From Marsupella aquatica (taxonomy: Eukaryota > Plantae > Marchantiophyta): a stretch of 64,000 bases of DNA. This document shows positions 3,001 through 62,274 of this stretch, in pieces; the stretch's first letter is position 1; every line of letters starts with the position of its first letter. The position numbers and the translations under genes were made by a program. The stretch lies in assembly GCA_973895155.1 (NCBI GenBank), contig OZ316896.1, positions 6,190,166-6,254,165 of the forward strand, in the 5' to 3' direction. The notes under the pieces were generated by a model. It had not been told where the DNA came from, ran no database searches, and saw only the letters and a list, made by a program, of their open reading frames with translations.

Positions 3001-6000
3001 AGGTGGGGGCAAAGGTTGCGAAACAGATTGTGCGAACCCTTGTGAGGCGGGCTGCGACAAAGGATCTGGCAAAGATTGTAAAGCAGGCTGTAATAATGAT
3101 TGTGGCAAAGATTGTGCCAAAGACTGTGGTAACGACTGTGACAAGGACTCTGGCAAAGGCTGCGGCAAACCTTGTGTCAAGGGCTGTGAAGTAGGCTGTG
3201 ACATCGGAACAGGGTCAATTTGTATAGCACCCGCCGGAACGGGTTCCACCGGAGGGTCTTCTGTCTTGTAAGGAAATAACCTGGGGCTCATTCCAGAGCG
3301 ACCAGCCAGGAATGAATTCATGACGTTCCAAATTTCTTCATCAAATCCAGCTGGCAGCTTCTTCGCTTTACAATCAAGCCCGCCTACGGCCCAATAAGAT
3401 TCCATGTCATTTTTCTTCTCCCAGTCCTTTATCTTCCTATAGGCTGCAAGTAATGTGTTCCATCGCTTTCTGCACTGAACACTTGTCCTTTGCACTCCAT
3501 GATTACTACATATTTGGGAAATAGATTTCCACTTAGCATCACCCCCTGTGGAAGTTGTACCGGCATCTTCCTCAAGCTGTTTCATCGCTGACACTAGTGC
3601 CATGCTTTCATTCCTTGTCCACCTCTCTCTCTTCCATCGCTCTTCCCCTCCATCACCGCCAACACCTGTAGCGTCCCCTCCATCACTGCTCTTTGCTGGC
3701 TGTTGAACAGCTCCCGGTCCCCCATCTCCTAACGTCTTGCTCTCAGGGTCACTTGATATCTCCTCTGCCATTCTTCTCAAATTTTACGTACAGCGTCTTG
3801 GTCCTGTAAACAGAACCTCGTTCAGCTTAATATTTGTTTGAAGCCAAAGACAAAAGTCTAAGATCAAGCGCACAACTAATTCTGCATACTGGCCCAGAAT
3901 GTCTCCAGGAAGTTTTGTTTAACTTCAAGCACTAAAGCACAAATTCATTCAGTCTCTACTTCTCCCAAACTAGAGTGTCCTGAAGATTTCCTTCATTTAG
4001 CTATTTCTTCTCTCCTGCTAGGAGTCTCTTTCACTTTCCCTTACTGAGAAACTAAGAGCTGTAATCTGTAGGCAATCAATATCTTCGGACCTAATGCTTT
4101 GTTAGTCATCCTCTCACTACTTGTGAATGTGCACTACTGTTTCCAACCTTCGTAATCCTTGGATAACCTTCTACTCATCAATTAATCCACACCTGATAAC
4201 TCTGATACTTAATGGCTCGTATATCCATACCACAGGTTTGTCCTGTAGACATACAGTAGTAAACTTCCTTTGACCGGTAGACTTCTGTTGTTTCCACAGA
4301 TACAGGATTTACTTCGCCCCGATAGCAGTAACATGCAGATACGAGAAGGTGAAACCGGGGTCTATGTATCTGGAGTAGAAGAGGTATCGGTGCCAACATT
4401 CAATAGCACCAGATGTGAGGGAATCCGACAGTCTTAGTATAAGAACGCCAGTCAGTTTATCCGCACAAACTAAGCTACAAAATCTATGAATGTCTCGTCC
4501 CTGCAGTCAATAATTGTTTTCATAATCTGGGCTTATACTCGCTACTCGCTCTACAAAGAAGACTCCTTATGTGTACTGCACTTGGACAGATACAAGTCAC
4601 GTCGGGAGACGACGTTATGAAGCTGCTATTGTTGGGGGACCAGAACAGAGTATTTTCCTTCACAAAGCTGGTAAAGACCCTCTGCGCTAAGTTCAAGTCT
4701 TTGCGGATTGATCGAGATGACTTATCCATACCACTGTTCTCTTCGGAATCTCCCTGCTCAAGTACATACCTAGTGAAAGCAAATCCGGTGACAGTAAAGA
4801 ATAAAACACAATATCTGCCTCAGACCTGCATACTGCTGACTCAATATTCTTCCTCGCATTTGTTGTACAAGGGGTGAGCCATTCAGGACATGGGTTCGGA
4901 GACTCAAACTAGGCTAGGAAATGGAAGTAAAGAAAGGTAACCCAAACAAGAAAGTAAAAATTTTCAACAGCTAAGAAAACGGTTATTCAAGTTAAAGAGA
5001 CTCAGACCAGATTGACAAATCCAAGACAAAAGGATCAGCAAATCCGAGATCATAATGATGGACCGGCTTGAAAAATGGCTGTCATATTTTTCAAGGTCAA
5101 GTAAATGGCTTGTCTCCAGTAAGAGATAGTAAATGCTCGTTGATATTATGTACAGGTCCTTTTCAATCTGACGGACAACGCACGACACTTAATTTCCTTA
5201 TCCTCTCACCAGAACTATCTGGTTAATTAGATACAAACCATGTACTAAAGAAGGTTAATACGCTTGCATGATAATAAACACAACACTGAATTGGGTGACT
5301 GCAGAATGCTCACTCATCACGCAGCCATGCGATTGTGATCCTTACAGTCGAGAAGAAGGCAAAGTGCCGGAGTTCTGACCACCCAACATGTGACTTGCAA
5401 GATCGCCTCCACTGCCCAGCTGGATTTCTGGAAAGTGAAAGGTGCTGATCGTGCCTGTGCTGTCAGACGTTCATCTTTCACGTCAACGTTGCAGCAATAC
5501 TAGGGTTGAGGTCACTAAGCCACAAACTAGACATATCATTTCTATAAACAAATTGATAAACAAGAAGAAAACGTCCTGTTTAAGAATCTCTCTTCGACTA
5601 CATACTAAAATAAACTCAAGTTCATAATCAAACACCTACTTCTTCACTACACCAATTATCGTGGTCCAACTCATTCCAAAACTACAGGATCATGTCAATC
5701 TCTCCCACAGCTTATTCTTTGTCTGGTAAAATTAAACCCTATCATTAGAAATTTCAGAGGATAGAAATGAAATATATCAATGTCCAACTCTGTCACTTAT
5801 GCGGCACTACGAAATGCTTGTAGGGTACTGGTGGGGAAATTGTTCCTTGTTGATCTTGCTGGTTCAGAAAGATTGAAGAAGAGTGGTAAGATAATAGCTG
5901 CCAAACATCTCACTTCAGAAATTTGTTGTCAACGGTATTAGATACCGTTGAGCTTCAATCGTCAGCTCTCATATTCTTCATCTGATCTTTATAACTACAA

Positions 6001-12000: not shown

Positions 12001-15000
12001 GATATTTCCTGTCTTCTCCACCCAGACAGATGACATTGTTCTCTTGGTTGTTCCCTTCAATAAAGTTTCTCGGGCTGCTGTCCTTTCCAACAACCCAAAA
12101 AAACTAATCTATATTTGTCCATATTTGGTGTTTGAATACCAATGACCCTCAAGAACTCATTCAAACATTATACTTGAATGTGCCAAAAGAGCAAAAGAAA
12201 TTCTTCAAATAGAGAATTTTGCTGTTGGTGAGCTGTAGATGAATACTATTTCAGGTTATATCTAAATTTAATGACATCAATTTTGCTAATTTGATCTGCT
12301 AATCCATATGCTATTTGACTGCCTTTTGTTAACTAATGCAGAAAACATAATCTTTGTAAACACCTAACTTTCATTACAAATCAAATGGTAGGCCTCCATA
12401 TTGACAAAGGAGGAACAACTTTTGCAAGCTCGTCAAATTTTGGAGGAACGAACAAAACAAGTGGAAATGCTAAGAGAGGAGCAAAATTGTTTCAACGAAA
12501 AATTCATGGAACAATTAAGAGTGAAAGATGAAAGGTGGCGCAATAGGTATGTAAATCTGGCTAATCTTTATATTTGGAAAGCACTGGCAACTTGAGCTTA
12601 GTCTTTATCTTTTTTACTCATTTCTTGAGCTTGAGTAGGATGTACGGTCTAAAAAATGATGACTTCTATCGCTCACTCAATCATAGTGAAATGCTATCTG
12701 AATTCTTCCACCTAGGGTTCCTAGCAGGGCTAAATTACCTGTAATATTTGAGGGTTGACTACAGAAATCCTTAGGCACCACATGAGACCTACAAAATACG
12801 TTTTGAGTTATTTTTACCAAAATTTTCATAAATATATAAAGATTTAGAAGTTGATTACAATACTGAATATAGAATATTCCCTACTTTCTACCTTTTACAA
12901 AATAATATAGATTCTTTCAAAACTCATGCAAGCATCTATGGAATATAGAGGTTTATTAGTATCGCACATCATGGGTATTCTTAAAACCAGATTTTCTTCA
13001 CCTTCGAATAAAAGTGTCTGATGACTTGATTGATATATGAGGTTTCAATTTGGCAGTTGTGCCTTAGCTTAGCCACCTAGCTATGAGGCTATTTTATGAG
13101 TTGAGCAATGAGTGAGTCCAGGAAGTGACACTAAAGGCCATAATCTGAGATATCTTTGAGAGATATTGTTGCCTACAAGCTGTCATTTTGAGGCCCTCTT
13201 AGATGACCTAGGCCTTTAAATGATCTTTATTGAGTTATTCTGTAAGTAACAGTAAGGACAGGAGATTATTCATGATGCATATCATTTCTTTGAAGTTGCT
13301 ATGGTGAATACACCTTTCAGATTTTGTCTTAGTCAGATTTTGTGTGTTATGTATTTTTATTTCAATGTGCTTTATCAAGGGGCGTCCTTTGTATCATATA
13401 GATTTTTAATTAATTTTTGGACTGCTTTAATTTTTGGTATCCTAGAGAATTTTGATCTGATTTTGGCAGCCCTCCTAATTTTTAATCTTTGTTCTCTCTT
13501 AGATTTCAAGTGTGCAAAAACACTTGGACCAAGTGTTTAAGTCTTCTCATGAGTGTTAGAAATGATTCTAACTAACCTGAACACATCTTGTGTTAAATTC
13601 CCCTCATGGCCTTCTTTCCCAAGTTTATGGTTTTTATTCATTTGAGTGTCATTAATAAGGCACATTGAATTAATAAGTGCAGAGATTGTAGCACCTTTAT
13701 GTCATAGGACTTGGCTGTACTTTTTGTTGGTCACTCTGTATGTGCTTTTCTTTGCATGTGCCTACTTATATTATTTTATCCCACTCACACTTGATATGTA
13801 TTCTAGTTATACTCTCTTATTTTATCCACTTACATATCACTACAAGACAAAAACTCAAGCATGTTCCGAGATGAGTATGCTATATTCATGATGCGTACCA
13901 TATTTCACCAGTTGGCATTAAAGGGTAACTAAGGATGTTGACACTCTAGTAGTGTTTCCAATTAAAGTACTAGGCCATCTAGGAACCTCTATTCCCTATG
14001 GCTATAAGGGGTGCAAATAAAGAGGGCAAGAGTGATGGAAATGCTCAGCAATCCCTCAAGGGGCACTCCTACGCTTGCACTTCTCCCACAAGTGTAGACT
14101 CTGTCAGCCATAATTGCCAACTTACATTACTAAATTTCTCAAGTATAATTGCATATCTTCACAAGTAGACTATTGAACTCATTCCATTCCTTATCCATTT
14201 AATTGGGCTTTTCTTGGTTTGGCCCTTTGCACCTCCCCCCCTAAAAAGACCCCCCCAAAAACTATTGAAAGAAAGAAACTCATTTTTCCTTTAGTTACCC
14301 ATTACTCACACTGAGACATTGTTTTTTTCTAACAAAAAGGCTAGAAGTTGTGCGGAATGCAGCTGCTGAGAGTAATAGGAAGGTGCAAAATCACAGCCCT
14401 TTTCCATCCATTTGTAAAATAGGCATTTGTAATCAGTCCATCACCTAACCTGCAAAAGATGTGAGTATGATTGAGAAAACACACCAGAAACTCATGGGTC
14501 CATTACTTCTAAGTAAAGTTTTTTGCGTTTCTTTGAATTGTCATGTTTTTTCTTCTCTTCTGGTATTTTGGGCACTCAGTAAACACCTTTGTAACCACCA
14601 CTCTCAGATAGTTGAATGTCCCCTTGTTTCAAAATAATTTGGCACCACATCCCACACAAATTAGCTCCCTTGGGGGCTTGGGTTTGAGACAGGTGCCAAA
14701 GGGCTTATCACTTACAAGTGCTGACGCCAAGCCTTATTATATACACATGATTGCTTTAAGAGCTAATTAAAGAGACACATACTTTGGATTCTGTCTGAAG
14801 TAGAGAGATGAAAAGCATTGAAAGAATCTGATCAGGAATCCTTCTCACTTTTTATGAACTCATTCCTCCAGTCAATCAATTAATGGTCTTTCTGTAGGAC
14901 ATTAGGACAATACATGATATCTCATTTTGATTAAGGCTTGTGTCTCTTAGATATCAATTTCTTAAGGCATGTTGTTATGCACAAATAGAGAATACATCAT

Positions 15001-24124: not shown

Positions 24125-24714
24125 GCTGGTGAATGCAACTTTCAGTATTTTGTCTAATTCAAACTTCTTTTATTATGCTTTTTTATTTCAATATGCATTT
24201 TTATTTCAATGTGTCTTACCAAGGTGCATCCCTTGTATAGTTTAGATTTTCAATTTATTCTGGCACCCCTCTAATTTTTTTAAATCTTTGCTATATTTTA
24301 AGATCATTCACCTTGTAACAAAGGTGGTTGAATTTCTAGCCCTTATTCTCATGAGTACAGAAGAAATGATCTAAATAATGTGCACACTTTATGTCTTTAA
24401 GTACTACTCATGGTTTTGTGTCCTAAATTTATGATTTTAATTATTTTGAGTGTCATTACCTAAAGTAAATACATAAATATCTCTACTCATGTACATTATG
24501 TGCACATCCCAATACCATAAACTTAAAACTTTCCAGTGCATTATTTTATTTTTTTATATGTGTACTTTTATTTTTGTACCTTATGTGCACAAGTTTCAAT
24601 ATCATAGACTGTAAGTCTTCCTAGTCAATATCCTGTTTATATTTTAATTAGAACATCTGTATATCACTAAAAAAACAAAAATGGAAGCATGTTCCAGGAT
24701 GAGCATGCTATATA
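24125..24714 (+). repeat. Dispersed ~600-bp repeat family, copy 3
   Basis: GGTGAATGCAACTTTCAG.TTTTGTC... ending AGCATGTTCCAGGATGAGCATGCTATATA. Confidence 0.75.
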
Positions 24715-25584: not shown

Positions 25585-26083
25585 CATATAGCATGCTCAT
25601 CCTGGAACATGCTTGAGTTTTTGTCTTGTAGTGATTTGAAAATAAATAAAATATGAGAACATAACTAGAAGGATTGGTGCACAGTGACCAATGAAAAGTA
25701 CAATCAAGGATGCTACGATGTCTGCACTTAATTCAATGTCCTCATGAATGACACTCATTTTAATAAAAATCATAAACTTAGGAAAGAAAAACATAAGGAG
25801 AACTTAAGACACAAACAGAACCATTTCTCTCACTCATGAGCCTTTGTTCAAGTGGTGGAGCCTTTCGTTCATCTCTAATAAATCACAAACATCAAAATTT
25901 ATATGGGGGCTGCCAAAACAAGTTCAAAATACTCTAGAATTCTAAAATTAAAGGGGTCCATAAATTAAATAAAAATGTATATTATACACAAGTTGCCCCT
26001 TGATAAGGCACGTTGAAATAAAAATATATGACGCCAAAACTCTGAATAAGACAAAATCTGAAAGATGGATTCACCATATAGCA
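25585..26083 (-). repeat. Dispersed ~600-bp repeat family, copy 4 (inverted relative to copy 3)
   Basis: The reverse complement starts TGCTATATGGTGAATCCATCTTTCAG and ends CACTACAAGACAAAAACTCAAGCATGTTCCAGGATGAGCATGCTATAT. Confidence 0.8.
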
Positions 26084-36300: not shown

Positions 36301-38407
36301 CATTTTTGCGAAGCAGTCAACATTTTAATCTGGATAAGGTGATTGAAGTGTTTTCTGGTTGGGAAGGTCATCAATGATTCGTAGTAGCTTCAAGTGCTGC
36401 AAGCTTTTGGAAACAGTTGCTAGATGACAACTAATCTGTGGCAGAGGTCCTGAATAATGACCAGGCGGGACAGCTAGGAGCAAATACGGGGTTATAGTTC
36501 CTGACACTAGAAATCTGTTTTCCCCTGAAGTACGGAGTAGCCTGAAGCTTCCAGTTTCTTAATTGTTTTCATAAATGTGATTGTGTCGAGGGTCTCAGGA
36601 TGAATCTCTTATTTAAACGAGATATCAAGGCGTAATCGCGTAAGGACATGGAAAGGTGCATCAGTTGATTGTTTGACAAGTAGTGCATAAAACAGTGCAT
36701 GAGTCAAAATTGATACGCAACCTGTTTGGCTTCGCGTATTTCTCTCAGGCTTATGATATTTGCACAAAGAGAGGGTTAACGAGGGAGAGAGTCTTCTTGC
36801 TAGGGAGAATGGGCAACGTCAAAGAGGCACTTGGCCTGATCATCAACGAGCTAAAGGATGTTCAGGAGGTCAAACTCGTCCTTTGCCTGTCTTTGAATTT
36901 TGTTTAAGGCTTTCAATATCGATTCTTCTACTCGTGAAGAAAGTCATTTTAGCAGAGCTTATATTCTTAATGCAGGCAGTTAAATTCATTGGTGCTCAAC
37001 ACGACGAGGATTTGTGGGAGGAGCTCATTAATCAGAGTTTGAAACATCCAGATATGGTCAGTGGATGCTGGAGAGTGTTACTGCGATTGTTGTTTGGTCT
37101 TTAACACTTTTGCAAAGCAAACTTTTACTAGTTTCATCTAACGCTTGTGCAAGTACACATTTTGTTAACCACATCACCGGAGTTGCAGGTTGGTGCACTT
37201 CTGGAGCATACCGTGGGAAACATCGATCCTCTACATCTTGTACTCAAAGTTCCACTGGGGCTTCCTATTCCACGGTAGTTGATCTGAACAAATATTGGTT
37301 CTGCCTTGCTTAACATCCCTTTACATAGTTGCATTTGCATAGGATGTAACTTTCATCGAGGAAAATCTAAATCTGATCGTCGAGTCGATCTGAACATAAC
37401 AGGCATGTTGTGATCTGGTTCCAAATCTGTAGGTTGAGGGACAGGTTGGTGAAGATTATTACTGATTATCGAACTGAGACGTCTCTCAGGGAGGATTGCA
37501 TGAAGATTTTGAAGGTTTGTGCACTGTTTGTTGTTAAACTTTGATCCATCCGTTGCTGGTATTTAAGGTGTTGCCTGCGCGTAAGCACGCTTTCTTATCA
37601 CTTCTGGTTTAATTTTGAGATGAGATAGGATGTCCTTGTATTATAGATTATTGATCTTCCTGTTGGACTAGCTAGCAGGACTGTACCCCTTTACTGTCAA
37701 ACAGAGTAGACAGAGTAGGGACGCCTCAGTTAGGGTAGCGAAAACGTCTTTCAGGGCTCAAAGCTGTTTTGCTTTCTAAAATTAAAAAATTGCACAGTTA
37801 GCTAAGTTCTTTCAGATTTTGGACTACTAATAGCTTGATTCGTGGCCATCTGTGGCAGGCTGATTGTGTTGACCTACTGGTGAGATATTACGATGAAGCT
37901 CGCCATGCTATTCGAGTGGGAGGTGCAGAAAAGGGAGAGGAGGCTGGAGAGGTAGGTGGGGAGGCTGTGAAGCTAGGCCCAGCCTTGGGAAGGGCTGGAA
38001 GTGGAATCCAACGAGGCATCAAGACTGGACGAATTTCTTCCAGTGTTAGTGGAAGTGGTCGCTGTTGCATATGTCTGGATCCTGTTGCTCTGCAAAATGT
38101 TGCTGTGGTTGCATTTTTCTGCTCTCACGCTTACCACGTTACCTGCCTCAATGATACATCAGGTATCCGCTCAAAAGCATCAGATAAGAACAAGAAAGAG
38201 TCTGAGAAAGATCTTGCATTTCGAATTGGCCAAGGTATCGGGAGCTTGTATGAACAAGCAGATGACGATGAAGATGAGGAAGAGTCCGATTTCCCTCGCA
38301 TGCGGTGTATTTTGTGTACAACAGCCTCCGAAAAGTACCAGTCCAAGGGCAATCAGAAGAAGAAATCTTCAGTTCCAACAACTGGGAATGGTTGGGGTGG
38401 GTCTTGA
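30381..38407 (+). CDS. VPS41: Vacuolar protein sorting 41 (HOPS subunit): WD40 propeller, clathrin repeat, C-terminal RING-H2
   Basis: 19 GT-AG exons: 30381-30656, 31965-32234, 32406-32585, 32701-32955, 33204-33336, 33646-33736, 34030-34132, 34316-34419, 34502-34595, 34844-34999, 35140-35202, 35416-35481, 35849-36043, 36261-36338, 36749-36868, 36976-37056, 37189-37274, 37433-37514, 37859-38407. Signatures: acidic N-terminus then EPRLKYQRMGGS, IALGTHDG, HSGEGPVHAVKW, DAEDHVAWLLQHGWHEKAL, LLPFLRSSQH, CCICLDP...FFCSHAYHVTC. Confidence 0.97.
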
Positions 38408-42403: not shown

Positions 42404-43998
42404 TCAAAACAGCAAGTCACACAGACAGCAGCAGCATAACGCCGCCAGGCTGCACACATCCAAACAACGAGTTAATAGCATTCTAACAGAGAATTTTCAG
42501 CACACATACCTGAGAATTGTTTATCCCAACCTGAAGCTGATGGGCCCGACGCGGAAGCAGTACACAAGAAACTATTTACAAACATCTTAGCGACTTTCAA
42601 TTAGGATTTCTACAAACAACCCTTCTGAGGCTTCGGAAGTCCACCAAGTCAGATCCGAATGAAAATCTACAAAGCAGACTTAGACTTCACCAGAATCTAT
42701 CCTCCTCGTCGAAACTAGCGTGTCGAGATACTCTGGTCGCCGTTCAAGATCAAAGGGAGCACAAACATACATCGTTCTATCAGAGGTCTCTCTAGGTGGG
42801 ACTCTCAACTACCGTCAAGCGAGGTCCGAAATAAACGAATTCGAGCACTTATCAGTCAAATCGAAAGGAAGCCCTCAGTACAACAACGTCCAAGTCACAA
42901 CGACAAACGGTTGGCTAGGAGTCCGGCCGAGCTCCTAAGCAGCAATGAACCGCAAATTAGGACTGAGGGAAACATCTCACTAGACACTCAGTTTTGGTTC
43001 ACTGCATCCGGAGCACCTGGAAAGGGCTTCCGCTAGACCAAGGAGAAATTACTCACCATCCTTCAACAAGTGAAGGCCCACCGCGCTGCTGCTGTTGCTG
43101 ATATTGTGGTTGAGGGGCGTACATGCCCTGTTGAGGAGGATAACCTTGCTGAGGATAACCTTGCTGAGGAGGACCCTGCTGATGATAACCCTGAGGAGGG
43201 TAGCCCTGGGGAGGATATTCCTGTGAAGGATAACCCTGAGGAGGGTAACCTTGTGGAGGATATCCACCACCTGCAGTGGCAACAAGAGAAATCTCATTAG
43301 TAAAACTTATTGGACCACATACTACGATTCGCAAGATCAACGGGAGAATTATTCCGCGTGCCTTCAGGAAACAATCGTCTACTTGCTTAGTTGCGCACGG
43401 GTAACAGGACTCGGGAGGCGTAGCACTAGAAAGTTTTCCACACGGCAAGAGAGGTGCAGATCCACGAAGCCCATCGCTCGGTCGCAAATCAGGAAATGAC
43501 ATAGAGAATGTAAGGTCGCTGGCAGTGTATCCAAGCGCACTAGATACCTACGGGCTATCTTCTTCAGGACCACAACGGATCTTCGTAATGATCACAACTC
43601 CTCAACATTGCTTCAAATATAAAAAGTCACGGATGATGCCCTCACGATCTAACTAACTCCAACTTAACAGATGGAGAAGCCAACGGCGGCTAAGAGGGTG
43701 AAACGTAAACAGGGCTGTCGTCTGTTCCGTCATCGACAAATCCCCCTCTAGAATAACCACCACTATGAGAATCAAGTCAATTTTAAAAAAGAGGGTTGAC
43801 CACATTGTTTTCCGTAGCCTAGCGTAGGTCTTAGAAAGAAAGCATCTAAAAACATTTTAGTTCTCCATTACTCTCGAGTAGACAGAACAGCTGCAAAAGT
43901 TGGAGTCTAAGTCTAAATGAACATCGACCAAACTCACCTCCATAGCCTTGCGGAGGCGGAACTCCAACGGGCGGCTTGCCGTCACCGTAGGAACCCAT
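42404..43998 (-). CDS. CYSTM-family small protein (Pro/Gln/Gly/Tyr repeats plus Cys-rich tail anchor), 106 aa
   Basis: Exons 43998-43938, 43270-43057 and 42449-42404, with phases 1 and 2 consistent. Protein: MGSYGDGKPPVGVPPPQGYGGGGYPPQGYPPQGY...GPSLVEGCLAALCCCCLCDLLF*. Confidence 0.93.
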
Positions 43999-49224: not shown

Positions 49225-50480
49225 TCCCGCCTTATTCAAAATGTAATGTAATGTGATGTAGTGTTAAGTGTAAGCAGTGTCAACTAGTGTGACCTAAATT
49301 ACTCGGTTGAATGAGGTCGTTCGTAAGGTTAGTCACATTCGATGAAGGAAGTGTCGAAGAAGAAGGAGCAGTAGTTGTTGCGAGGGAAAAAGGAACTTTG
49401 TGAGGTTCATCGATTAGGGAAAAGCGGACTAGGGGAGCAAAGGTTGAGTGGAGGATCTGCGTCAAAGATCGATGGGCGCAGTGTGGGATTGTTGTGTAAC
49501 CATATACTCGGGTCCAGTAATATTTCCATTCGCGCCCCTATGGATGTTTGTATGAACTGGTGACTCTGCATCTGCGTACACTACAACATATTTTGCCCTT
49601 TTGCGAAGCTCATTTGAGTCCAAACACACGTTTGCGATTCCAGATGCTTCAAACCGTTGATGACTCAATACGCATCGCAATTTGCGATACTTGTGGTATC
49701 GCAACTTTGGTCTTCCATGCGATTTGCATCGCAAACATTTTGCGAACTTTATTGTATCACAATAGTTTGCGAAACTACAGAGATTACAAAACACATTACG
49801 AAGGCTCCGCGACCGCTCCGAAAGTCCGAAACCACGGTAACATTAATGATGCAAAACAATTAGTATTGGAGGATGTTTGCGAAAAGGTTAGCTTCAAACA
49901 ATTTGCGATGGGTTTGTATGGCAAATGTGCGAAACGATGTGGATGGTAAAGGTGGGATGGTCTGGATATCGCAAAATAGTGAAGCGTATAGTATGGAATA
50001 ATTGAGAAACGGTTTAAATGGCAGAATTGCGATTTGGTTGGGATTTGTTTAGTTTCGCAAATAGTTCGCAAACGTTTATGTTAGACTTGTGTGTGCATCT
50101 AGGTTAGAGTTTGAATGGGGGAGGAGGAGGGAGGGAGGTGAAAGGTGAAAGAGGGAGGAAGGGAGTTGGAAGGTGGATGAGGGACGGAGAAAGAAGGGAG
50201 TCCAAAGAGGGTTTACTAAAAATAGGAGAGACTTTAGCGAAGAGGGAGGGAGGAGAAAAAGCTATGGAGTTTTTGGAAGAGGAAGGAGAGTTTGGGTTCA
50301 AAGAGCCCGGAGGAGGGATAAGGGAGGGAGTACCCATGTCACTTATATGCATGACCTCTTTTGAAAGTAGGAGTCCAAAATGAAAATACCTACCACACTA
50401 ATGGTGTATGAAATATTAATTAAGAAACAACATGAACAATCCATGATATAGATTTTGGTTTAAATATCCATAAGTGTCTC

Positions 50481-53400
50481 TCACACTTGGTCACCTTCAA
50501 TGTCCTCTACATCTGACACAAAAATAGTGTCTGGCTTGTCTGAAACAATGGAACGAGACCGTGGCACATATGTGATGACAAGTGACCACTCTGGGTCTAA
50601 GGGGTATGGAACGTAGAAACATTGCTCCAAGTGAGATGGGAAAGTAAATGGCTCTGACGTTTGCCAATGAGATGCTTGAAAACTAGTGGCACTTGTCCTC
50701 AACCGTGTAAACCCACTCTCATCTTGGAGTACAGTGCGATTATTACCAACAAGGTTCACTTTGAACCACTTGCACTTGAAGACATACTCCTCAAACTTAG
50801 ATTGGTTGTCATATGAGACCACCAAAATCTCCTCTATCTTCCCATAGTGTGGCACAACATCACGAACAATGTTCCTGTCATGTCGGCTACTCCGGGAGTC
50901 CTGACAAAACTGCCCTTGAACTCCACAATCAAAAGTACGAGCCCTCTTCTCATCAAGGGAAGAAATCCTGAAATTAACAAGACCCATATATTGTTACTAC
51001 TACACAAAAAACACTAATCATGTTATGAGGAACCTTTCATACCAAAAGAGAAAAACACACTTATCTTAAGTAAAATGATTACTATATCTTAAGTAGTAGT
51101 ACATGAATATGGAAAACAAGGTTATGAACTAGTGAAACCTGAAGTGTCTCCCTTGGGTCCACATGGCCGTCTTGGATGTTACCACTCTCAAAGGGCCATG
51201 AACAATGGTCCGAATGTCATTTGTCATAGTAGGAAACTGTGAGACATCTCCTCCTTGTGCCAAAATGCCATCCAACTCAACCAACTTTTCCTTCATAAAC
51301 TCATGCAACTTAGGAAAAATCCTTGCCCTTTGACTCATTCTTTTGGCATTGTCATAAAACTCCCTCCATTCATCCATGACATTGTTATTACTCAACATGA
51401 ATGTATTCAACTGTGTCCACTCTGTTGATGTAAGCATGCGTGTTTTTGTTGCTCCTGTTAAACGGTCCTCCTCCTCTTGCCTCTCCTCCATCCAAGTACG
51501 TGGTAAAGTCCGATCAATGGTGGCCAAGATGTTACTACAATAAAACATGCTCTCTACAGCCAAGTATCCTGTAGCTATGCTTCCCTCCACTCGTGCACAG
51601 TTACGTACATAAGCCTTCAAGACTGACATGTAACGCTCAAGCCAGTACATCCATCGACAATGAACTGGACCAGCAATGGCAACCTCCCTCACAAGATGCA
51701 CAAGTAAATGAACCTGACAATCAAAGAAGGAAGGAGGGAGGGCCTTCTCCAACTTGCAAACCACCTCAGCAGCCAATACCTCCATTCCAGGAATCTCTTC
51801 CACATATATCTCCTTTGAGCATATCCATCTCAACAAACGACCCAATGACCAAATGGCATCTTGCACTTCTTTGGTCCCCAACCCTATAATTGCCACTGGC
51901 AATATATGCTGCAATAAGCGGTGATAGTCATGTGTCTTGAGATACCGTGGCCATTTGTGATTGTCCTCCATCCCAAAAGCTTTCCTCAAATTGGCACCAT
52001 AGCCTATAGGAAACCGCATCTCCCCTATACGATTCCAGAATTCACGTCTTTGGCCAACACTAAGCACCCAAGGAGCAGAAGGATGATGTTCCAAACCTGT
52101 GGCAGGATCAACTTGTACCCATACATCTGGATGCATTTCCAACTCTTCACATGCCTCCCTGAAGTTAGTGTCCTTCTCCCCATAAAAATGAGCTATCAAC
52201 GCCTTCCCCACATTTCCCTCTATGTGCATGGGGTCTAAAAGATGGCGGATCTTCAACTCTGACCAATAGGGCAAACTGGCTAGTATACTCCACCTCGTCA
52301 ACCCAATACCATCAAAGGTGAGGGGATCATCAGGGTCTGCCACCCTATCAGCTAGTGACTTCCAATGCCCAAAAGTTGTTGGTTCCGGAATTTCCCGCAT
52401 ATCACCAAGGGGCATGTCAAAGGAGGAAAATAAAAGTGGGTCAGACCTCATCTCATGCCCCATCGGAAGAAACTTTGTATGCCCAATGTAAACAATCTTC
52501 CTAAGCCATGGGGACCAAATTGCCATATCTTGCAATTGTGGACCACAGGTGGAGCAAGCTTTGTACCCCTGAGTTTGCAATCCAGAGACAAAGCCAAACC
52601 CTAGTTACACCAAAAATAAAACCAGACTAAATGTTAGGGTTGTCACATGACAAACAAGTATATTAAAGAGCATATCAAAGAAGGGTGGCATATGGTCAAA
52701 AAGTCATCTTACCAGGATAGTCATGCATTGTCCAACAAACTACCCCTCTCAGTTTAAATACACGTGGAATGCCTCCTGTATTTTTCCTGCCATCATATGC
52801 CCACACTCCACCCCACAGTTTTTGGAGTTCTCCAATCAATAGTGCCAAAATAAGTGTCAAAGTTCTTCACCTTTTTTGGACCTGGAATAATCAAAGACAG
52901 CAAGAGGAACCCCTTCTTCATGGATAGCCATGGTGGAAGGTTGTAATTCATCACAACCACAAGCCAAACTGATGTAGGTCTTCCCTTGCCTCCAAGGGCA
53001 TGAGGACTAACCCCATCAGATGCCAATCCCAACCTCACATGACGAGGATCATGTGCAAAGTCTGGCCATGTTTCCTCAATATGTTTGACTACAGGAGAGT
53101 CAATTGGCAACCGCATAACACCAGGCTCTGATCGATGAGTCTTATGCCATACCATCAACTCTGCCAAATCAGAACACCTGTACATGTGCAACAACCGAGG
53201 AATGATGGGAAACCAACGAACAGCTTTTCTTGGCACCTTCTTTGTAATCATGTTGGGGTCATACCGTGGCTCATGACATTCAGTACACTGTGTCTTCTTC
53301 TCATCGGCCCCATGAAATAACATGCAATCATTCACACATGCATGAATGATATGATATTCCATGCCAATTGATGAGAGAACACGCTTGGCCTCCTTCCAAG

Positions 53401-55193
53401 TTCCTGGCAACACATTGCCAGAAGGTAACATAAGGTCATGGCAAAGTGCAAACATATCAGATAACAAGGCATTGCTTGCCTTGTGTTTGGCCTGTAGATT
53501 CATCAACCCCAAGATAGCAGAAAGATGACTCAAACGAGCACCCTCATAGATAGGAGTTCGGGCATGTTCCTCTACTTCCTCCCATTGGCGCTGTCCCTCG
53601 GGGGTATGTCTTGGTCGTGGATCATTGGGGGGCACATGACCTCCTTGATCAGCAGACACCTCAGCATCATCTCCAGGGACGTCAACACCAAACCAATCAA
53701 CCATAAAATCATCCATGGCTCTATCTTGGTCATCAATAACCTGTTCATATGTTCTGGGTACATTGCGATCAGGGTTGTTGCTTCCACTGTCACTTGATGA
53801 GGAATGTGACTCAGAGCCTTGTCCTTCTTCTGGCATACCCATTTCCCGATATGCTGCTCTCAATCTCCGCGGTAACATATTTTGAGAGGGTCGCACATTC
53901 TAAAAACAATGCAAACAATTGAAAGTTACAAAGCAAATAGTTACAACATGTAGAAGAATATATGGGGGTGTGCAAACATGAAATAATATCGGTACTGGTG
54001 TAAATACAAAATGTGGCCAAACGCCATGTGTATGGTCATTTTCTAATCCCACACATAGTGAGTAAACAACTCATCACCTGAGTGAATGGTCCTAGTAGCT
54101 ACAACCAGACAATGGTCATGATGATATGTTTGGCCATAAGGGGCTGGTGGAGGACCCTCAATGAAAACCCACTCACAATTTTGCCTACACTTGGGGCGAG
54201 TCCCCACAGTACTGTTTATGAAACCAACTATATTCTCAGTTCGTATGGGGTCCCCATCTATCACCCGTTGCTCACTATACCTCCTAGTGTTTCCATCAAA
54301 AGTATCTAACTCCAAGGTATAAGTCTTCCACTCAGGATGTTGTGCAAGGATCATGTTCCAATGTCTTCTCTTGTAGATGGGTCCACCATAAGGAAACAAC
54401 GTAGGTCCTTCTCGACCGCGTCCACCACTACCACTCTCGGTATCCACAATGATGTCTTCACAAGCAAAAACTCCATAGCCATGTCTATCCCCAAGTGTGG
54501 AAGGTTTGATAACCCAACGTCTTCCCCAAACCTCTACCTCCTCACCATAGGAAAGCTCTTGTGGCAAACCAAGAGTCTGGGGATCCCAGTCCTTGATGAT
54601 AGGAACACATCTGCCAGTAAACTCACAATCACCCCACCTACCGGTAACCACTGCCTTGTACAAATCAGTATCCCCTCGGGGCCGTCTCTTGGAACGCTTT
54701 CTCCCTCTTGGGACAACAGGCTCACCCCCAACTGCCCTAGGACTGGAGGGGGCTGTTGCTAGACCCAAGGCTTGTGAGAATGCATTGCCTATAGCATCTA
54801 GAACACCTTGTGATGGGACATAAGGTGCTGATGCCGCAGGTCTAGGCCTACTAGATACCTATTCCACCCAAACCAAAACAAACAACAAGAGGTGTGAAAT
54901 TAAAACCCTTCACCATTGCGATGTGGAAATAGGGTAGAAACTAAGGCGTAAACACTTACCACATGGGATGAGGAAGCCCCTGTTGTATGACGTCCGTAAC
55001 GTCCATATCTCTCAATATGCTGGGTGCATATATAGGACTTTTGGGAAACCTGACCCACGCATTTGGCACATTGGCAAAGCTGACGGGGTGGACCACGAGG
55101 AGGAGGTGCAGTCGTGTGAGGTTGAGGAGGAGGTGGTATATCTTCATCGGAGGAGGAAGAATCTGTGGTGGAGATCTCAGAAGATGAAGACAT
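50481..55193 (-). pseudogene. CACTA transposase (TnpD/Tnp2 family), about 1120 aa if repaired; one frameshift
   Basis: Exons 55193-54960, 53899-52713, 52600-51139, 50967-50481. Motifs: IHACVNDCMLF...CTECHEPRY, WFPIIPRL, LGLASDG, NYNLPPW, HDYPG, GYKACSTC, LDPMHIEGN, LKTHDYH, FFDCQVHLLVHL, GPVHCRWMYWLER, YGKIEEI...FKCKWF. One extra base at ~52847-52850 breaks the frame, and removing it makes all exon phases consistent. Confidence 0.92.
54043..55193 (-). CDS. Transposon-encoded SET-domain protein, 349 aa: shared exon 55193-54960 spliced to exon 54858-54043
   Basis: Uninterrupted frame. SET-like motifs in canonical order: VIKPSTLGDRHGYGVFACEDI, LFPYGGPI, YTLEL, VIDGD, NIVGFINST...NC, LVVATRTIHSGDELFTHY. 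Phase-0 donor GTAAGT at 54959 and phase-0 acceptor TAG at 54861-54859. Confidence 0.8.
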
Positions 55194-56562
55194 TGCCCCT
55201 ACAAAGATGTATAATTTGCAAGTTAGGGGTTATTACCAAATAACATCACAATATCAAGCTGGACAAATGTAAGTTCTCAAGTAATGATGACATGAAACCA
55301 AACACAAAAGGAACACTAAAAAATACCTTTCTGAGACCCAGGCTCAGCGGTGCCAATAGGTCTTGTGGCTCTAAAACAATGAACCGAATCTGGAAGTATG
55401 AGAAAAGCTGCAAGTACACAAAGCGAACACCTTACATACATGTCCTCTTTATAGATAGTGGGAACCAAAAATTTTAATTACATGAATAAGCCTAACTAGA
55501 CCCATCTATTTTAGTCCGTACCTCCAGATGCCCGGGCTCTCACGATGCATACGCATTAGCTAGTATCAATTCATGCAAAAGTGCCGCACCCTGCAAGTTG
55601 TCATAGCTCCGCCTCCTTTGTTAGCATAAAACCCATGGAAAAACCATTAAAACCCAAAAGATCCATAAAACCCATTAAAACCCATAAAACCCATGGTAAA
55701 ACAACTAAAACATTAATCTCATCTAACCTTGCTTTGCCTTTTCCAAACCCTCACCCCCAAACCTCTGACCTATTACAAAAACCTAGACCCTCACTCCCAA
55801 TCCCCTTCGGACTCTCTTTTGTTTTAAACCCTAAACCCTTGCTTGAACCCTAAAAGCCTACAACCATAAATGCAAACCCTGCTTAAACCCAAAATTAAAG
55901 ACTTAAACCCTAAACCCAAACCCAACTTTAATCCTAAACCCTTTCCTCACTTATTAATTTTAAACCAAAACCCAACTCTTATCAAAATTAGCCTACACCC
56001 ACACCATGTATAGCTTAAAAAATGGAAGGTTTGACTGGTAATCTCGCTTTTAACCCCTAAAAAAACCAGCTTCATCCAAGACCCAACCCTAACAAACGCC
56101 GGGATTTGAAACGGCGGAATTTCTTAATTACACAAAAGGGCATAGTATAACTTACATGGCCTAAACAAAAGGAGGAGGGAAAGAATGTGAAATTTTTTTT
56201 TGCCAGGAATTGCCACGATATTGAGAACCAACCTGCTTCGCAACCTGCTTCAGAATTTGGTCACATTATTTGCGAAGCAAAATGTTTCGCAACAGCTTCA
56301 GAAAAATAGAGCCCGAGAGCATTTTTTCGCGTCTCTGCAGCTTTGCAAAGGCTTTGCGAAGCGTGTGGTTTCGCATTGGTTTTGGAAAGTTGAGATACTA
56401 GTTGCGAAGCGGGCTGATTCGCAAATTGCGATGCGGACTGCGTCGCAAATGTGTTTTGTCTGGGCATTCGGACCTTCCCGTCGGGTTACGAGGCCCATTC
56501 GACGTTTTTTGAAGTGAGGGAGGGCAAGAGGAGAGCTTGCGCGCGCTTGGTATTGGATAGCT

Positions 56563-58673
56563 ATGGATTCTAGTGGAGGGCATGGAGGGGATGGGGCAGG
56601 GGCAAGTGGGAGTGGGAGTGGCAATAGCAATGGAGGGAACAGGAATGAGGAGAGTAATCAATGGACGAATTTGATGGCCGAGCATCTCAATGCCACACAG
56701 CTTAGCCATTTGGATTTGAGTACACCAGCTGGGATTGCTTCTTTGAGTGCAATTCTAGGGCAAGCTTTGCAAACCGGGGTTGCAGCAGGGCAGGCTCAGA
56801 GGGAGAAAGAGGCAAAGGCTGCAGCTGAGGAGAAGGCCAGAGAGAAGAAACGAAAGAAGGAGGAGAGGGCTAAGGCAGGAGTACTCTCTCCTGCAGCCCT
56901 CGAAAAGAAGAGGAGAAGGGAGGAACGAGATGAGATTCGAGCACAACGTGAGGCGCAGCGGAAAAAGGAGGAAGAGAGGAAGAAGCTGCCATTGATTGCC
57001 TTGGTTGAGGGCATTCCTACTGAGTTGGCCTACACTGGGGCAAAGAGCATTATCAGGCTTGTTGTGAGGACTAGCTTTGCACGAGGTGTTGAGTGGGGGA
57101 AACTAAGCAGAGCAGAGCAGAGGAAAGTAATGACTCAGGTCAAAGATTCATTCAGAAATGGAGCAGAGATTGATGACCAGTGGCTTGCAGATAGAATTTT
57201 GAATTCAATGTCTCAAGCACGATACCATGATAGGAGGAAGGTGAGGGCCTACCTGGCAAGCTTGCAGGAGTACAGGAACGTGAGGAGGCCAATGCAATTC
57301 ACAGAGGATGTGTGGAACGCGTTCTATAAGGTCGAGGTGCAGCTGAAAGCAGCCAAGGACCTCCAATTCTGGAAGGAGAAGGAGGCCAAGGCACTTCAGG
57401 CCGGGAAGTCAGACAAAGACCTCAAGGCATTGGCTGAGAAGGTCTCTCAGCTGCAGCACATCGTGGATGAAGTGGGGACACCACCCTAGAAGTTCATCCT
57501 TGCAGCAGACCGAGTCAGCAAACGCCCCAAGACCACACACAAGATGGGGCAAGGTGGACTTCCCGGCCTGAAAGCAACCTTCGTGAGTCCTCTCCCCTCC
57601 TCCCCTGCTTCTTTTCCTTCGCCTTCAATTGTTGTTTGCTTGCCTGCAATGCCCCTCGCAGACCTCTGCTTTACCCCTTATGGCCTCCCCTTTCGTTTTA
57701 GGTCACCCTGACACATTGCGTGCCTTAGCCATTTCTCGGATTTTTTTAAAAGCACAGTTTGCGAAACAATTGCGAAGCGGGTTGCCTCGCAATTGTTTTG
57801 CAAACTCTATTATAACCTTTTTCCCGTAAGGTTTGCGAAGCCATTGCGAAGCAATCCGATTCGCAATCTATTTCGCAAACTTAAATATATTTGAATTTGC
57901 AAAGGTGGGAGTTTTGCAAAGCTTGTTTCATTTTGAAAAACATTTAGTGTCGAGTGACAAATGTTTGTTAGGGTAATGGGGTTTTTTTCTGGTTAGGGTA
58001 CCCTTTTTACCCTTTTTAGGATTCCTTTTTTGCTTAAGTACCCTTAGTTACTAACCCGGGCCCCTTATGTTTTGGTGTTTCATTTTTTTGTGGTAGTATA
58101 AGAGGTACCGCCGCAAGATAACAACAAAGGAGATGGAGATAGGGGCAGAGCATGGGGCCAGACATCTCTTTGAGTTGGTTGATGAAGAGTTGGCTAGTGT
58201 GAGTGATTTGTAGTACCCTTTCTAAACCCGCACCCATTCCATTTATAAGGTTTATACATTTTTCCTATTAACCCTAAACCCGAATTAACCTTGTGACATG
58301 GAAGCAGGATAAGGAGGAGCAGGAGGGGAGTGAGGATAGCAGTGAGGAGGATAGCGGCGCTGATGATGGGGACACTACCGGGGCCACCACGAGTGGGTCC
58401 AGAGGGGCAGGGAGTGCTGCCACACCTAGCACACCAGGAGACCAGGAGGATGATGATGAGGATGATGACGATGATGAGGATGAGCCAGATGGGGAGGAGC
58501 AGCAGGCACCACCACCACCACCCCCTCCCGTCCAGCTCGTCCCGCCCAAAGCAAGAAGGACAAGGGGAAGAGGCCAGCAAAGAGGAGTAGGCGGGCTCCA
58601 TTCTAGAGGATGCAGATGTAGTTCACTCCATATGGCATATGGATTAGTCAAAGGACAGTGTCTTGGTATTTGA
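56563..58673 (+). pseudogene. Second CACTA ORF (TnpA/Ptta-like accessory protein) with a premature stop, divergent from the transposase
   Basis: Exons 56563-57582, 58097-58198 and 58308-58673, all phase 0. Charged coiled coil, then RPMQFTEDVWNAF. The frame continues past TAG 57487-57489 through KFILAADRVSKRPKTTHKMGQGG to a GTGAGT donor. Acidic/Pro-rich tail. The family assignment is by resemblance only. Confidence 0.65.
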
Positions 58674-60398
58674 TACCCCATAGGGTTTTAGAAAACCCTA
58701 ATTTTTGTACATTCAGGGATTTTTGGCATATATAAAGTTTTGCTTTGGTATCTTCATGTGGAGCAATAAGACCCCAACCCAATTATGAACCCAAATATAC
58801 AAAACCCAGCCCTCAAACTATCCTTGTGAAACACATGCGAACGCCATACTATCACAAACTTGCCATACATTGAGTATTGGAACATTGCGATACTTTTGGT
58901 TCCGCAATTGTGCGACACCCTGACTGACACAGTTATGCGATACCATATGAATGGCAACAGAATTGTCAAGACAACAGCTTCGCAAATAAGTTATAGTTCA
59001 GAGCGCGTCGCAAACCGATAAAGAGTCTGTCGAGATCGCATAAATGTGATTTATGTGCGATAAAATAAGTTTCGCAGTGTGCGAAGGGGTTGCGAAAGTC
59101 CGATTGCGAAGCTGTGGGTTTCAAAGAATGCAAAAGGGTTGCGATGCGGAATTTCATAATTTGGTCCTTTGTTAGTTGCGATGGGACGGGGTTCGCAAAA
59201 GGGGTCGGTAGTGTTGTAGTGGTAAGGGCCTGCTGCAGCTGATCGCGTTGATGCTTTGTTGTTGTAAACATACGCTTCAGATTTGCTATTGCTTGTCTTC
59301 GAATTTGCCATGCTCTGGTGGATGTCAATTTCAGTAGTGCTGCTTTGATCCAATTGGCAGAGTGTATGTCTATAGTGTGTTTCTTTCTCTCGTCTTTTCT
59401 CAGGTTTATTGAGGTCCGTTTCCTTCTCTGACGGTGTTGTGATGTGCTCCGGAACTGATCCATGGGGGGAGGATCCGTTTTCCAGTGCAGTAAGGGCGTA
59501 TATGCGGTGTAGTTGATCTGGGGCCGTAAGCTTGAAGTTCTAAGGAATGGGATGGAATCGTTGTCCCTCAACGCCATTGCTGGCTTGCGCTCGTGTTTGT
59601 CTTGATCAGGTTAATCGCTCACTGGTTTTGCTTGTTGCAGTTGAGTGTAAAACAGCTTTGTAGACTCACTACGATTTGTTGTTGTTGTTGTTGTTGTTGG
59701 CTCCAAAAATAGTTGATTTGACAATGGGTAGCCTCTCCATAACGTCAACTATTGAAGCTACTAGAGCACCTAGTGCTTGAGGCAGGTAGTAGTTGGTGTG
59801 CATACTTAGTGGCATAGAGGTTTGTGGAGTTCCTGACTCTCCATTTGAAACAGGCGTGAAGCTAATTTTGGTATTTGGAGGGCGTAGTGTTGCACCTCAG
59901 TAGAATCGTAGGTGTCCATTTTGAATTGGACATTTTGAATTGGACATTTTGGGCCGACAATCCTTACTTTTTTCTTTGCAGTGTTTTCAGTGAGGTTCTA
60001 CAAAATCTTGCAGTGTAGGCAGTTGCGTTTTTTTGCGCTGTACTCAATGGTGTTTGTGCCACTAGCATAATGAAATGGTTTTCAGTGTTCCTGGACTTGA
60101 AGTGGCAAGGTCGGGGTATCGTCCGTGATTTTGTGGAGGAATGGCATTTCAGACTTGTAAATTTGATGCACTCTGTACTCGCGTTTAGAAGGTTACGCAT
60201 TACTAGCTAGGCTCATGGATAAAACTCCTTGTAACAAACAAATAATTGATGAATGCCCCTATTTTGCCTACTAGAACATGGAGACAAATACAGAACATAG
60301 CTGATATTAACAACCAAAGCATGAACATTTTTATTGGGCAAAATGTGTGTGCAAGGCACACAATACATGTATGCAACGCGCGTTTTAATGTGCTTCAC

Positions 60399-62274
60399 CT
60401 ATGGGCTAACCGAATCAGGGACATACGAAGTCCATGAATCTATAATATTCATCATTTCCTTGAAATGTTGTGGAGACCGGTTTTGCTTAAGAACTTCTGT
60501 GAGCAGCACAGTGGCTTGTTGAGCTTTGTTAATAGCGAGTTGATGTTTGAGCTCGGTTCTAGCCCTCTTATCTTCTTGCCTACGCTGCTGGGGGGGGTCA
60601 CTTCCATGGAAGTGGCACATCACGTGCGACGAAGTATAGGTCCATTTAAATGGGTGTGGCGGAAGACTTCCAAAGTTTGGTGGAAGAACACATAGGGCAT
60701 GTTTTATTGGCTGGTCTACTTTAAAGAACACATAGGCCTCTTTAATTGTAAAAAATACTTTCTTTAAAGTTTTTAGGGGTTTTTTTAATAAAAAATGACA
60801 AAATTTAAAGAAAGAAAGGATTTTGCAAAAAAATATTTTTCACTTATAAGTTAGGGGGGTCAAACCCTAAAACGTTGCACGTGATGTATGGCCCTCCAAA
60901 TAGTGACCCCCCCGAGCTACGCTGAAGGCGTTCTCTTTTGTCCAGGTGTGCAGATTGGGCATCTTGAATGACCTTCTCTCTGAATGCATCTGCTAGTCTT
61001 GCTTCCTTCCTGTCAGCCAATTCTTGCGCTCTCCATCTATCCTTTGCATCAATCATTTGAATTCTGAAAGCATTCTTCTCTTCTAATTTCTCTACATACA
61101 CCTCAGCCAGATTGGGCCTAGATGTGCCTTGAGTTGATGATGGCCTCTTGCCCTGTTGTGGCTGTTGAGTACCTCGTTCTTGTGTCACTGTTGGGTGAGT
61201 TTGTGAATTACCTTCGCTTCAACCTTGAGAACGTGGAGCTGCTGCTGTCGGGAAAGATGCTGGAGCTGACGCGGGCTCTTCAATAGTGGGTATGCTTGAT
61301 TGAGGCTGGGATTGGGGCTCGGGTGCTGTTGGAGGCAGCGATTCATCAGCGGAGCTGTTTCCGCTAGTAGGAGGGCAATTTGTGCGATGGTCCTGGTCTA
61401 TATTAGTCTGGCCAAACTGAAATTCAGAGTCACCTGCATCAAAATGTCCTAATTAAGCACGCAATTTAACTATGTGTAGTGGTGTGGAGATTATAAATAC
61501 TACGCAATGCTATGAAGTAACCTCTGCCACAAATTCAAAAAATGTTGCATCAATAGTGCTGAGAGTACTCCGAGGCGTAATGACTTGCCTTACCAACTTC
61601 ATGGTAGATGGGGTCATTGCGGGGATCCTTTGGGAATGGGAATTGGGACTCCGGCACCTCATCTTTGTCAGAACCAACATCGATGTATAATTCTTGATGG
61701 CCAGGAAAACCAACAGCGATTGTGCTTGGAGGAGAAACGTTTGCTCTCTCCCCATAAATTGCGTGCATACGCTCAAAATGGGGGCAAATTTCTCATACTT
61801 CTCTGCTAAAGTAAGACCCTGTCTCAACTTAGCGTCTGTGAGCCCAGCACCAGAGTCCCACTTCATCGCCAATGCCACTTTATATTTCTTTAAGAAACGC
61901 TGGAACCTTTTGCCAAGGTTATCGCCTGTTGTGACGAACTTGGGAAACCCATTGTCATGCAAGTCAATCAACATCTTCTTAAAAATAGTCTTCTTGGGAG
62001 GATGCTTACCAGTGACAGATGGGCGACTACTAGTGCCCTTGAGCATAGCAAAGTTCTCAGGCACCTCCAACCAATCGACAATTATCACAAGGTGTTGTGG
62101 CAAGAGCTTCCTGTATCTCCGGCTAGACCCAGACCTGCAGCTTGCGAGACCATTTCAGTGTCGGATTTCGGGAAGCTGGGAATCAAGGATGACAACTTTA
62201 GCAGATGAGCACCGAGGATGATTTGGATCCTAAATCTGATTGTTCAATTGTGAAATGCCCTGTAAGATGTCCAT
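60399..62274 (-). pseudogene. Degenerate Myb/SANT-like DNA-binding ORF of PIF/Harbinger accessory-protein type
   Basis: IVDWLEVPENF...KKTIFKKMLIDLHDNG...KRFQRFLKKYK...DSGAGLTD...(frameshift)...HAIYGERANVSPP, then a coiled-coil C-terminus. Contains stops and frameshifts and is split by a MITE. A TIR pair was not confirmed. Confidence 0.6.
60588..60916. mobile_element. 329-bp MITE with 8-bp TSD (hAT-like)
   Basis: TIRs CTGGGGGGGGTCACT...ACATCACGTGCGACG and CGTTGCACGTGATGT...AGTGACCCCCCCGAG; perfect TSD CTACGCTG at 60580-60587 and 60917-60924. Confidence 0.9.

Follow-up and report, generated by a model that had tools for sequence, protein, structure and literature searches.

A CACTA transposon of bryophytes carries a SET-domain exon predicted to be spliced to the finger of its transposase

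The 64,000-nucleotide stretch of Marsupella aquatica DNA analyzed here (the window) raises the question of whether a land-plant transposon can carry its own chromatin-marking enzyme. A sequence-only reading of the window had noticed an intact exon with the motifs of a SET domain, lying within a CACTA element, and had treated it as a gene of that element. Such an exon may encode a lysine methyltransferase whose marks on the element's own histones keep the element expressed. Alternatively, the enzyme may act on other proteins, the exon may dampen the element, its product may be a catalytically dead binding module, or the exon may be a captured fragment of a host gene that has no role for the element.

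We found that the element spans 9,643 bp (49579 to 59221) and is bounded, as the reading had stated, by terminal inverted repeats and a target-site duplication: CACTACAACA at 49579, the same sequence inverted at 59221, and the 3-bp target-site duplication GTA on both sides (49576 to 49578 and 59222 to 59224). The left terminal inverted repeat (49579 to 49606, plus strand) matches the right one (59194 to 59221, minus strand) perfectly over its first 10 bp and loosely over the rest. The hexamer TCGCAA/TTGCGA occurs 39 times in the 9.6-kb element and 21 times in the other 54.4 kb of the window, with clusters toward either end of the element, in the interval separating the divergent genes, and around 57760 to 57880. 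The left subterminal cluster, with the motif TTCGCAA/TTGCGAA, covers 49601 to 50071 and the right one 58979 to 59198, while the cluster between the divergent genes (56237 to 56448) may hold regulator-binding sites.

The transposase gene lies on the minus strand, and Pfam finds all three TnpD domains in it. Exon 2 (52713 to 53899) carries PF02992 and starts at a conserved phase-0 acceptor, AG followed by AAT (N-V-R-P-S); exon 3 (51139 to 52600) carries the end of PF02992 together with PF13960; and the last exon (50481 to 50967) carries PF13952. The splice sites of these last two exons are inferred, with the intron in the same position in the related locus L014. The transposase is 29 to 50% identical to angiosperm TnpD. 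In Sphagnum-type TnpD, exon 3 is interrupted near residue 200 by an additional intron of some 150 bases (2903 to 3056 in locus L011, 2627 to 2777 in L014, and 12805 to 12955 in L030), which the M. aquatica copy does not have.

A second, divergently oriented gene on the plus strand (56566 to 58670, ends approximate) occupies a TnpA-like position. It is conserved (dN/dS of 0.15 to 0.20), has at least three exons, and ends in an acidic tail. Its TnpA profile score of 14.9 fell within that of shuffled sequences, and neither Pfam nor the atlas returned a match. Its product may be an unrecognized DNA-binding accessory protein.

The M. aquatica copy looks defective for transposition because its TnpD is frameshifted near 52848, where sister contigs are one base shorter (at 52847/52849), and because the divergent gene has a premature stop at 57487 to 57489, where relatives have Leu. 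Its SET exon is intact. Contigs from four DNA runs span the element, and near-identical pieces connect the SET exon on both sides, its 3' end to TnpD exon 2 and its 5' end to the exon upstream. The depth of these pieces was 362 to 438 in run X2 and, in run X1, 1370 to 4494 against 100 for the right flank, which hints at many element copies, although depth is not copy number. The element also seems to be nested in another repeat (flanks 49400 to 49578 and 59222 to 59500), and joined, element-free forms of these flanks are present in three DNA runs. By eye, the left flank consists of a purine-rich tract and then TGT, resembling the start of an LTR.

The SET exon itself is a minus-strand open reading frame (54858 to 54043) of 271 open codons, closed by a stop at 54045 to 54043. 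Its motifs appear in the order in which they had been claimed: GYGVFACEDI (G127-Y128-G129), FPYGG (Y157), IDG (200 to 202), FINST..NC (N215, S216, and N227), and the C-terminal motif ATRTIHSGDELFTHY, which carries E263 and Y268. The GxG, YxG, and ELxxxY motifs are thus all present, and after Y268 the protein reads V-W-D-stop, ending three residues past the tyrosine as described. The Pfam SET profile (PF00856) matches at an E value of 4.9e-6, with 27.3 bits against a cut-off of 22.4, and in the family proteins scanned Pfam finds no other domain typical of plant histone methyltransferases. No cysteine cluster follows the catalytic tyrosine in any of the 58 aligned rows that have this residue, in agreement with the earlier statement that a post-SET cluster is missing. 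Residues 1 to 64 form a low-confidence linker with a basic patch, and residues 65 to 271 comprise a family-specific N-terminal extension and the SET domain; a basic patch precedes the SET domain in 28 of 42 rows.

The notion of a stand-alone SET gene is called into question by an upstream exon that it overlooked. The 5' end of the SET exon lies at a splice acceptor AG (54860 to 54859) and supplies no start codon. Ahead of it lies exon 1 (55193 to 54960, minus strand), which contains an ATG, a Ser/acidic stretch, and a C-x-C-x2-C...H zinc finger, and whose 3' boundary is a GTAAG donor in phase 0. Downstream are two acceptors, both in phase 0. The first, across a predicted 101-nucleotide intron (54859 to 54959, GTAAG...TAG), opens the SET exon; at the second, TnpD exon 2 begins with N-[VI]-R-P-S, seven codons ahead of its first Met. 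In related loci these sites are conserved, always in phase 0: GT stands at the donor in 18 of 18, AG precedes SET in 15 of 16, and AG precedes TnpD in 20 of 22. Public gene models of Calypogeia and Sphagnum, P0001 and P0004 among them, splice the same exon 1 to SET. Given this layout and the in-frame splice sites, we predict that SET serves as an alternative terminal exon within the first intron of the TnpD gene, and alternative splicing of one transcript very probably yields two proteins that share the finger, namely finger-SET, of 349 residues, and finger-TnpD. For the second product, no gene model confirms that exon 1 is joined directly to TnpD, because the 120 matches listed (of 141) to TnpD gene models of 614 to 2000 residues include no named bryophyte and none above 50% identity. 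A search for fused SET proteins of 805 to 2295 residues found none, which is weak evidence.

Against a profile of the N-terminal TnpD finger from 79 angiosperm proteins, exon 1 gave a probability of 87.6% and a score of 29.5, above the maximum of 21.7 among 40 shuffles that kept the three Cys in place, although this comparison is partly circular because the reference profile was chosen by the C-x-C-x2-C pattern. Exon 1 alone has no Pfam match, and the distant relative P0231 matches PF13963 at an E value of 0.031, below the cut-off. TnpD exon 2 lacks an N-terminal finger domain of its own, and the distant members P0202, P0214, P0231, and P0268 also start with such a finger.

If the SET exon were a passively captured fragment of a host gene, as in Pack-CACTA elements, it should be a one-off, and the sequence-only reading had named such a capture as an outcome that would undo its proposal. 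CACTA elements often capture gene fragments, and the SET copies of related loci do carry stops. A first protein search found 42 relatives among 1,841 candidates, and the 11 with a named organism were all bryophytes: Calypogeia fissa (73% identity), several Sphagnum species (55 to 80%), and Riccia sorocarpa (41%). One cluster comprises 360 members, with 12 of the 15 listed named as Sphagnum, from five species. Searching the complete set of 50%-identity representatives with a profile, we obtained 131 proteins at E values of up to 0.001; we looked up 20 of the 127 new matches, and the named organisms were Riccia (five) and Calypogeia (two). Among the named matches looked up there was no conventional host SET gene, which argues against passive capture. 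Two Calypogeia fissa models, P0254 and P0262, are very distant members (27 to 31% identity) with long branches and other N-termini, and could be other carriers or domesticated copies.

Linkage of SET to the transposase was assessed in a metagenome scan (56 of 64 parts), whose 595 candidate stretches included at least 41 confirmed related loci. Of the 26 loci that extend 300 bases or more downstream, 22 have TnpD some 150 bases behind SET, and the other four break off inside SET. Where the flank suffices, exon 1 precedes SET in 18 of 20 loci and the divergent gene is present in 10 of 14. A CACTA end lies 3.5 to 3.8 kb upstream of SET in five of the 41 loci, with four different flanks; no related locus showed a far-side element end or a target duplication. 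Since 40 of the 41 loci represent one Sphagnum-type family (81 to 97% identity to P0004, with three near-identical pairs), some of them redundant, neither these linkage counts nor the dN/dS values given below are independent. Independent support for the linkage comes from the distant gene models P0239, P0258, and P0268, which run from SET-family sequence into PF02992 and share about 28 to 47% identity with the M. aquatica sequence over the matched parts (two are from Riccia), and from the Sphagnum gene model P0025, which is named a transposase. The position of SET is constant across families down to about 30% identity. The SET exon is therefore a family trait and not a one-off capture.

The divergence of the exon bears on the same alternative. 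Between M. aquatica and the 32 of 40 loci that cover at least half of the SET core, median dN was 0.146 and median dS 0.77, and dN/dS ranged from 0.16 to 0.27 (about 0.19). The corresponding ratios were 0.13 to 0.24 for the TnpD pieces, 0.09 to 0.16 for the finger, and 0.22 to 0.51 for the linker. These values indicate that SET is under purifying selection and is kept as tightly as the transposase, and the neutral evolution that would have undermined the earlier proposal was not seen between families. Among the loci themselves, dN/dS was higher (0.68 for SET and 0.46 to 0.68 for TnpD), as expected because copies decay after insertion. Stops in related loci were as frequent or more so in TnpD (5.2 to 5.9 per 1000 codons) as in SET (3.3 per 1000). 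Given the low ratio between families and the fixed position of the exon, we regard passive capture as very improbable.

A tree of 68 SET rows places the M. aquatica copy with Calypogeia P0001 and other rows, inside a well-supported set of 16 rows that includes Sphagnum. Synonymous divergence between M. aquatica and the Sphagnum-type family is only 0.8 to 1.7. Because this divergence is low and members from mosses and liverworts fall together in a single tight clade, the sequences hint at horizontal transfer among bryophytes.

We next consider what the SET protein may do. A model built from the 71-row alignment (22 to 84% identity) reached a pLDDT of 91.9 and a pTM of 0.87, and its best Foldseek matches were SET8, LegAS4, and MLL1, at E values of about 1e-6 (best 7e-7), so that the SET fold proposed from the motifs was borne out by structure prediction. 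A structural search of 48,161 chains placed Set1 at the top (Z of 12.1, rmsd of 2.6, 124 aligned residues), with SET7/9, ctPRC2, and SET8 tied at Z of 11.6 to 11.7; the methionine-bound enzyme BurB was also among the matches. Searching solved structures by sequence, we obtained no SET match from a single sequence and five chance matches from a shallow profile. Only a deeper profile found SET, with LegAS4 as the best match (E of 1.7e-6) and the next at 8e-4; EZH2 matched at 0.018. A likeness to ATXR5/6 turned out not to be special (profile E of 0.11 for ATXR5, Z of 9.7). In the atlas, the SET domain lies near haptophyte and giant-virus SET clusters (0.96 to 0.97), which we treat as a lead only, and a viral fold library gave weak SET matches (E of 2e-3) with an earlier, poor model (pLDDT of 64). 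No plant histone methyltransferase class (E(z), ASH1, TRX, ATXR5/6, or SUVH) fits the family, because none of the flanking domains of these classes (CXC, AWS, pre- or post-SET, PHD, SRA) is present.

Several features of the active site could suggest a catalytically dead SET domain, kept as a binding or decoy module that, for example, binds methyl-lysine or histone tails and blocks host writers. The canonical NH(S) motif is not kept, as the sequence-only reading had cautioned when it read NST at this site: His is replaced by Ser in 68 of 71 rows, while the Asn is kept in 63 of 71, and the preceding Arg is replaced by Gly. In addition, the protein ends 2 to 6 residues past the tyrosine in about half of the rows, and position 157 is Phe in 20 of 71. 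The reading NST thus stands; as a ground for doubting activity it is weak, given that S216 is a family feature and that the Legionella protein LegAS4/RomA, which reads Y-I-N-F-S at the same site, is an active H3K14 methyltransferase according to the available part of its description (10.64898/2026.05.29.728679). Loss of this His is therefore not equivalent to loss of activity. LegAS4 (PDB 5czy, 8swi) is only about 21 to 25% identical to the M. aquatica SET and has ankyrin repeats that are absent here, yet the two are alike in lacking the His, in having a nonaromatic switch residue, and in carrying a basic stretch ahead of the domain.

The SAM-contacting Gly motif, the Asn, and the catalytic tyrosine are, by contrast, nearly invariant in the family: G129 is conserved in 68 of 69 rows, Y/F157 in 71 of 71, Y180 in 67 of 71, N227 in 70 of 70, E263 in 62 of 64, and Y268 in 58 of 62. 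A pseudo-enzyme therefore seems quite improbable, and we think it likely that the SET protein is catalytically active, as a predicted SAM-dependent lysine methyltransferase. Residue 265 of the model aligns with the residue directly preceding the F/Y switch of SET8, EZH2, and MLL1; taking the switch residue to play its presumed role in those enzymes, T266 would be the switch and Y268 the catalytic tyrosine. A small residue at the switch permits multiple methylation, and position 266 is T, A, V, C, I, S, or G in 60 of 62 rows. If the enzyme is active, we thus lean toward the view that it would be capable of di- or trimethylation.

Which protein the enzyme would modify is less clear from its fold, as the tied matches span writers of H3K4, H3K27, H4K20, H3K36, and H3K14, and the modeled structure does not choose a substrate among them. 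Nor does the relationship to LegAS4 imply a shared substrate, because the structural scores tie with SET8, Set1, SET7/9, and EZH2. An active lysine methyltransferase with a nonhistone target, such as the element's own transposase, the divergent protein, or a host silencing factor, could tune transposition instead. The SET unit is minimal, with no reader and no pre- or post-SET domains; SET7/9, which also has nonhistone targets, ties for the best fold match; and the finger in common with the transposase could bring SET to the transposase complex. SET folds in general also act on nonhistone proteins, and the BurB match is to a methionine-bound enzyme. However, LegAS4, the closest solved relative in sequence, acts on histone tails, as do most of the structural neighbors, and the basic patch ahead of the SET domain recalls the basic stretch of LegAS4/RomA that, in the portion of the report available, engages nucleosomes (10.64898/2026.05.29.728679). 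We accordingly consider a nonhistone target unlikely, while taking it seriously. Provided that the enzyme is active, we somewhat favor a histone substrate and anti-silencing of cognate copies, with the shared finger and the basic patch helping to target them.

The SET exon could also work against the element, either because the enzyme writes a repressive mark that dampens it or because the exon is a splicing switch that diverts transcripts from the transposase. The exon has a stop and precedes the TnpD exons, so any transcript that uses SET loses TnpD, and EZH2/PRC2 is among the tied fold matches. Synonymous divergence is also lower in the SET core (54046 to 54546, dS of 0.77) than in TnpD (1.0 to 1.3), exon 1 (1.2), or the divergent gene (1.7). 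This difference could reflect RNA-level constraint, as a splicing switch might impose, or SET-exon exchange between families, or noise. A mere switch, however, would not preserve catalytic residues over 22 to 40% identity, and in Sphagnum the family has attained a high copy number (the 360-member cluster). Self-limitation in either form thus appears to be a rather remote prospect.

The placement of the SET exon, where it would share the finger exon with the transposase, suggests that a chromatin-marking enzyme is likely among the element's own products. We propose that one transcript would give rise to the two splice products, finger-TnpD as the transposase and finger-SET as a nuclear SAM-dependent lysine methyltransferase. 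The shared finger and the basic patch would help direct finger-SET to cognate copies, where histone marks on the element's own chromatin would keep it expressed and allow it to escape host silencing. Finger-SET would then achieve catalytically what TnpA and VANC achieve through the recruitment of host enzymes. Against this proposal, the family lacks both the NH-motif His and a post-SET region, and the known plant anti-silencing factors, as far as the accessible texts describe them, use DNA binding and host demethylases and not an enzyme of their own. Weighing these points, we judge the chances to be evenly balanced that finger-SET is active as a methyltransferase and, by marking the histones of cognate copies, keeps them expressed. 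More tentatively, we suggest that an old bryophyte CACTA clade may encode its own histone lysine methyltransferase, outside all plant SET classes, on an alternative exon that borrows the transposase finger; this enzyme might write a mark possibly unused by plants on cognate copies, and might be the first chromatin writer encoded by a transposon to act in land plants.

The closest precedent for the layout is Spm. Maize En/Spm and Arabidopsis Spm3 make TnpA and TnpD from one alternatively spliced gene, and TnpA drives sequence-specific anti-silencing, according to the available portions of these reports (10.64898/2026.08.24.746577, PMC13547354). The M. aquatica element is Spm-like in its CACTA ends, 3-bp duplication, subterminal clusters, TnpD domains, two predicted proteins per transcript, and likely self-activation. 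Unlike Spm, its alternative product is predicted to be a SET-fold enzyme fused to the transposase finger and not a DNA-binding protein of the TnpA type, and it has a separate divergent gene as well. VANC of VANDAL elements is similar in being an element-encoded factor proposed to release cognate copies from silencing, but it belongs to a MuDR element and, in the text available, is described as binding DNA sequence-specifically; it has no SET domain.

SET cargo as such is already known. In red-algal Plavaka elements, the PAG2 protein combines an N6-adenine methylase with SET, and the accessible text only proposes a function for it (10.1101/2025.02.11.637652). The sequence-only reading knew of no SET cargo in a plant CACTA, and this stands insofar as we found no land-plant or TnpD-type SET-cargo element in the literature searched, the scope of which left aside Repbase Reports, most subscription journals, and preprint supplements; it does not extend to the EnSpm/CACTA superfamily, to which Plavaka belongs. 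The M. aquatica element differs from Plavaka in its canonical plant TnpD, its lack of a DNA methylase or oxygenase gene (Pfam scans of the element and family proteins found no N6-adenine methylase domain of the PAG2 type), its SET exon inside the transposase gene, and its land-plant hosts. Phytophthora HarbingerS and MuDR families carry SET genes (PMC12730594), and so does proto-Helentron-Pi, whose SET is reported as Clr4-like and 50% similar (PMC4067079). The consulted parts of these papers likewise concern transposon-borne SET genes thought to counter silencing, but in other superfamilies, in oomycete hosts, and as separate open reading frames, whereas the bryophyte SET family has no close eukaryotic class. 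New here are the land-plant hosts, the canonical TnpD element, the distinct SET family, and the predicted splicing layout with a shared finger.

With a small, well-modeled SET protein in transformable plants, it becomes possible to test directly a long-standing idea, that transposons themselves write the marks on their chromatin. The arrangement also represents a new route to an accessory protein, in which an enzyme exon is dropped into the first intron of a transposase gene. Hundreds of Sphagnum and liverwort gene models labeled "SET domain-containing" may turn out to be transposon genes, and the family may also provide a new methyltransferase that is compact and has an unusual active site.

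Elsewhere in the window, we noted by eye several frames that we take to be host or other genes: a trihelix-like one at 2680 to 3783 (minus strand), the C-terminus of a VPS41-like one at 37802 to 38407 (plus strand), and a CYSTM-like one at 43053 to 43547 (minus strand). A pair of frames at 60844 to 62154 (minus strand) is likely another host or other gene; a Pfam scan of 61513 to 62154 gave no significant match. The window also contains a second CACTA-type family, with identical inverted ends of 30 bp or more (CACTACAAGAC...) at 13838 and 25586 to 25635, 11.8 kb apart. The 3-bp sequences beside these ends (TAT/ATT) do not form a matching duplication, and there is no TnpD or SET match inside. 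A third end of the CACTACAAGAC family, at 24663 to 24713, pairs with the end at 25635 to delimit a nonautonomous element of roughly 970 bp.
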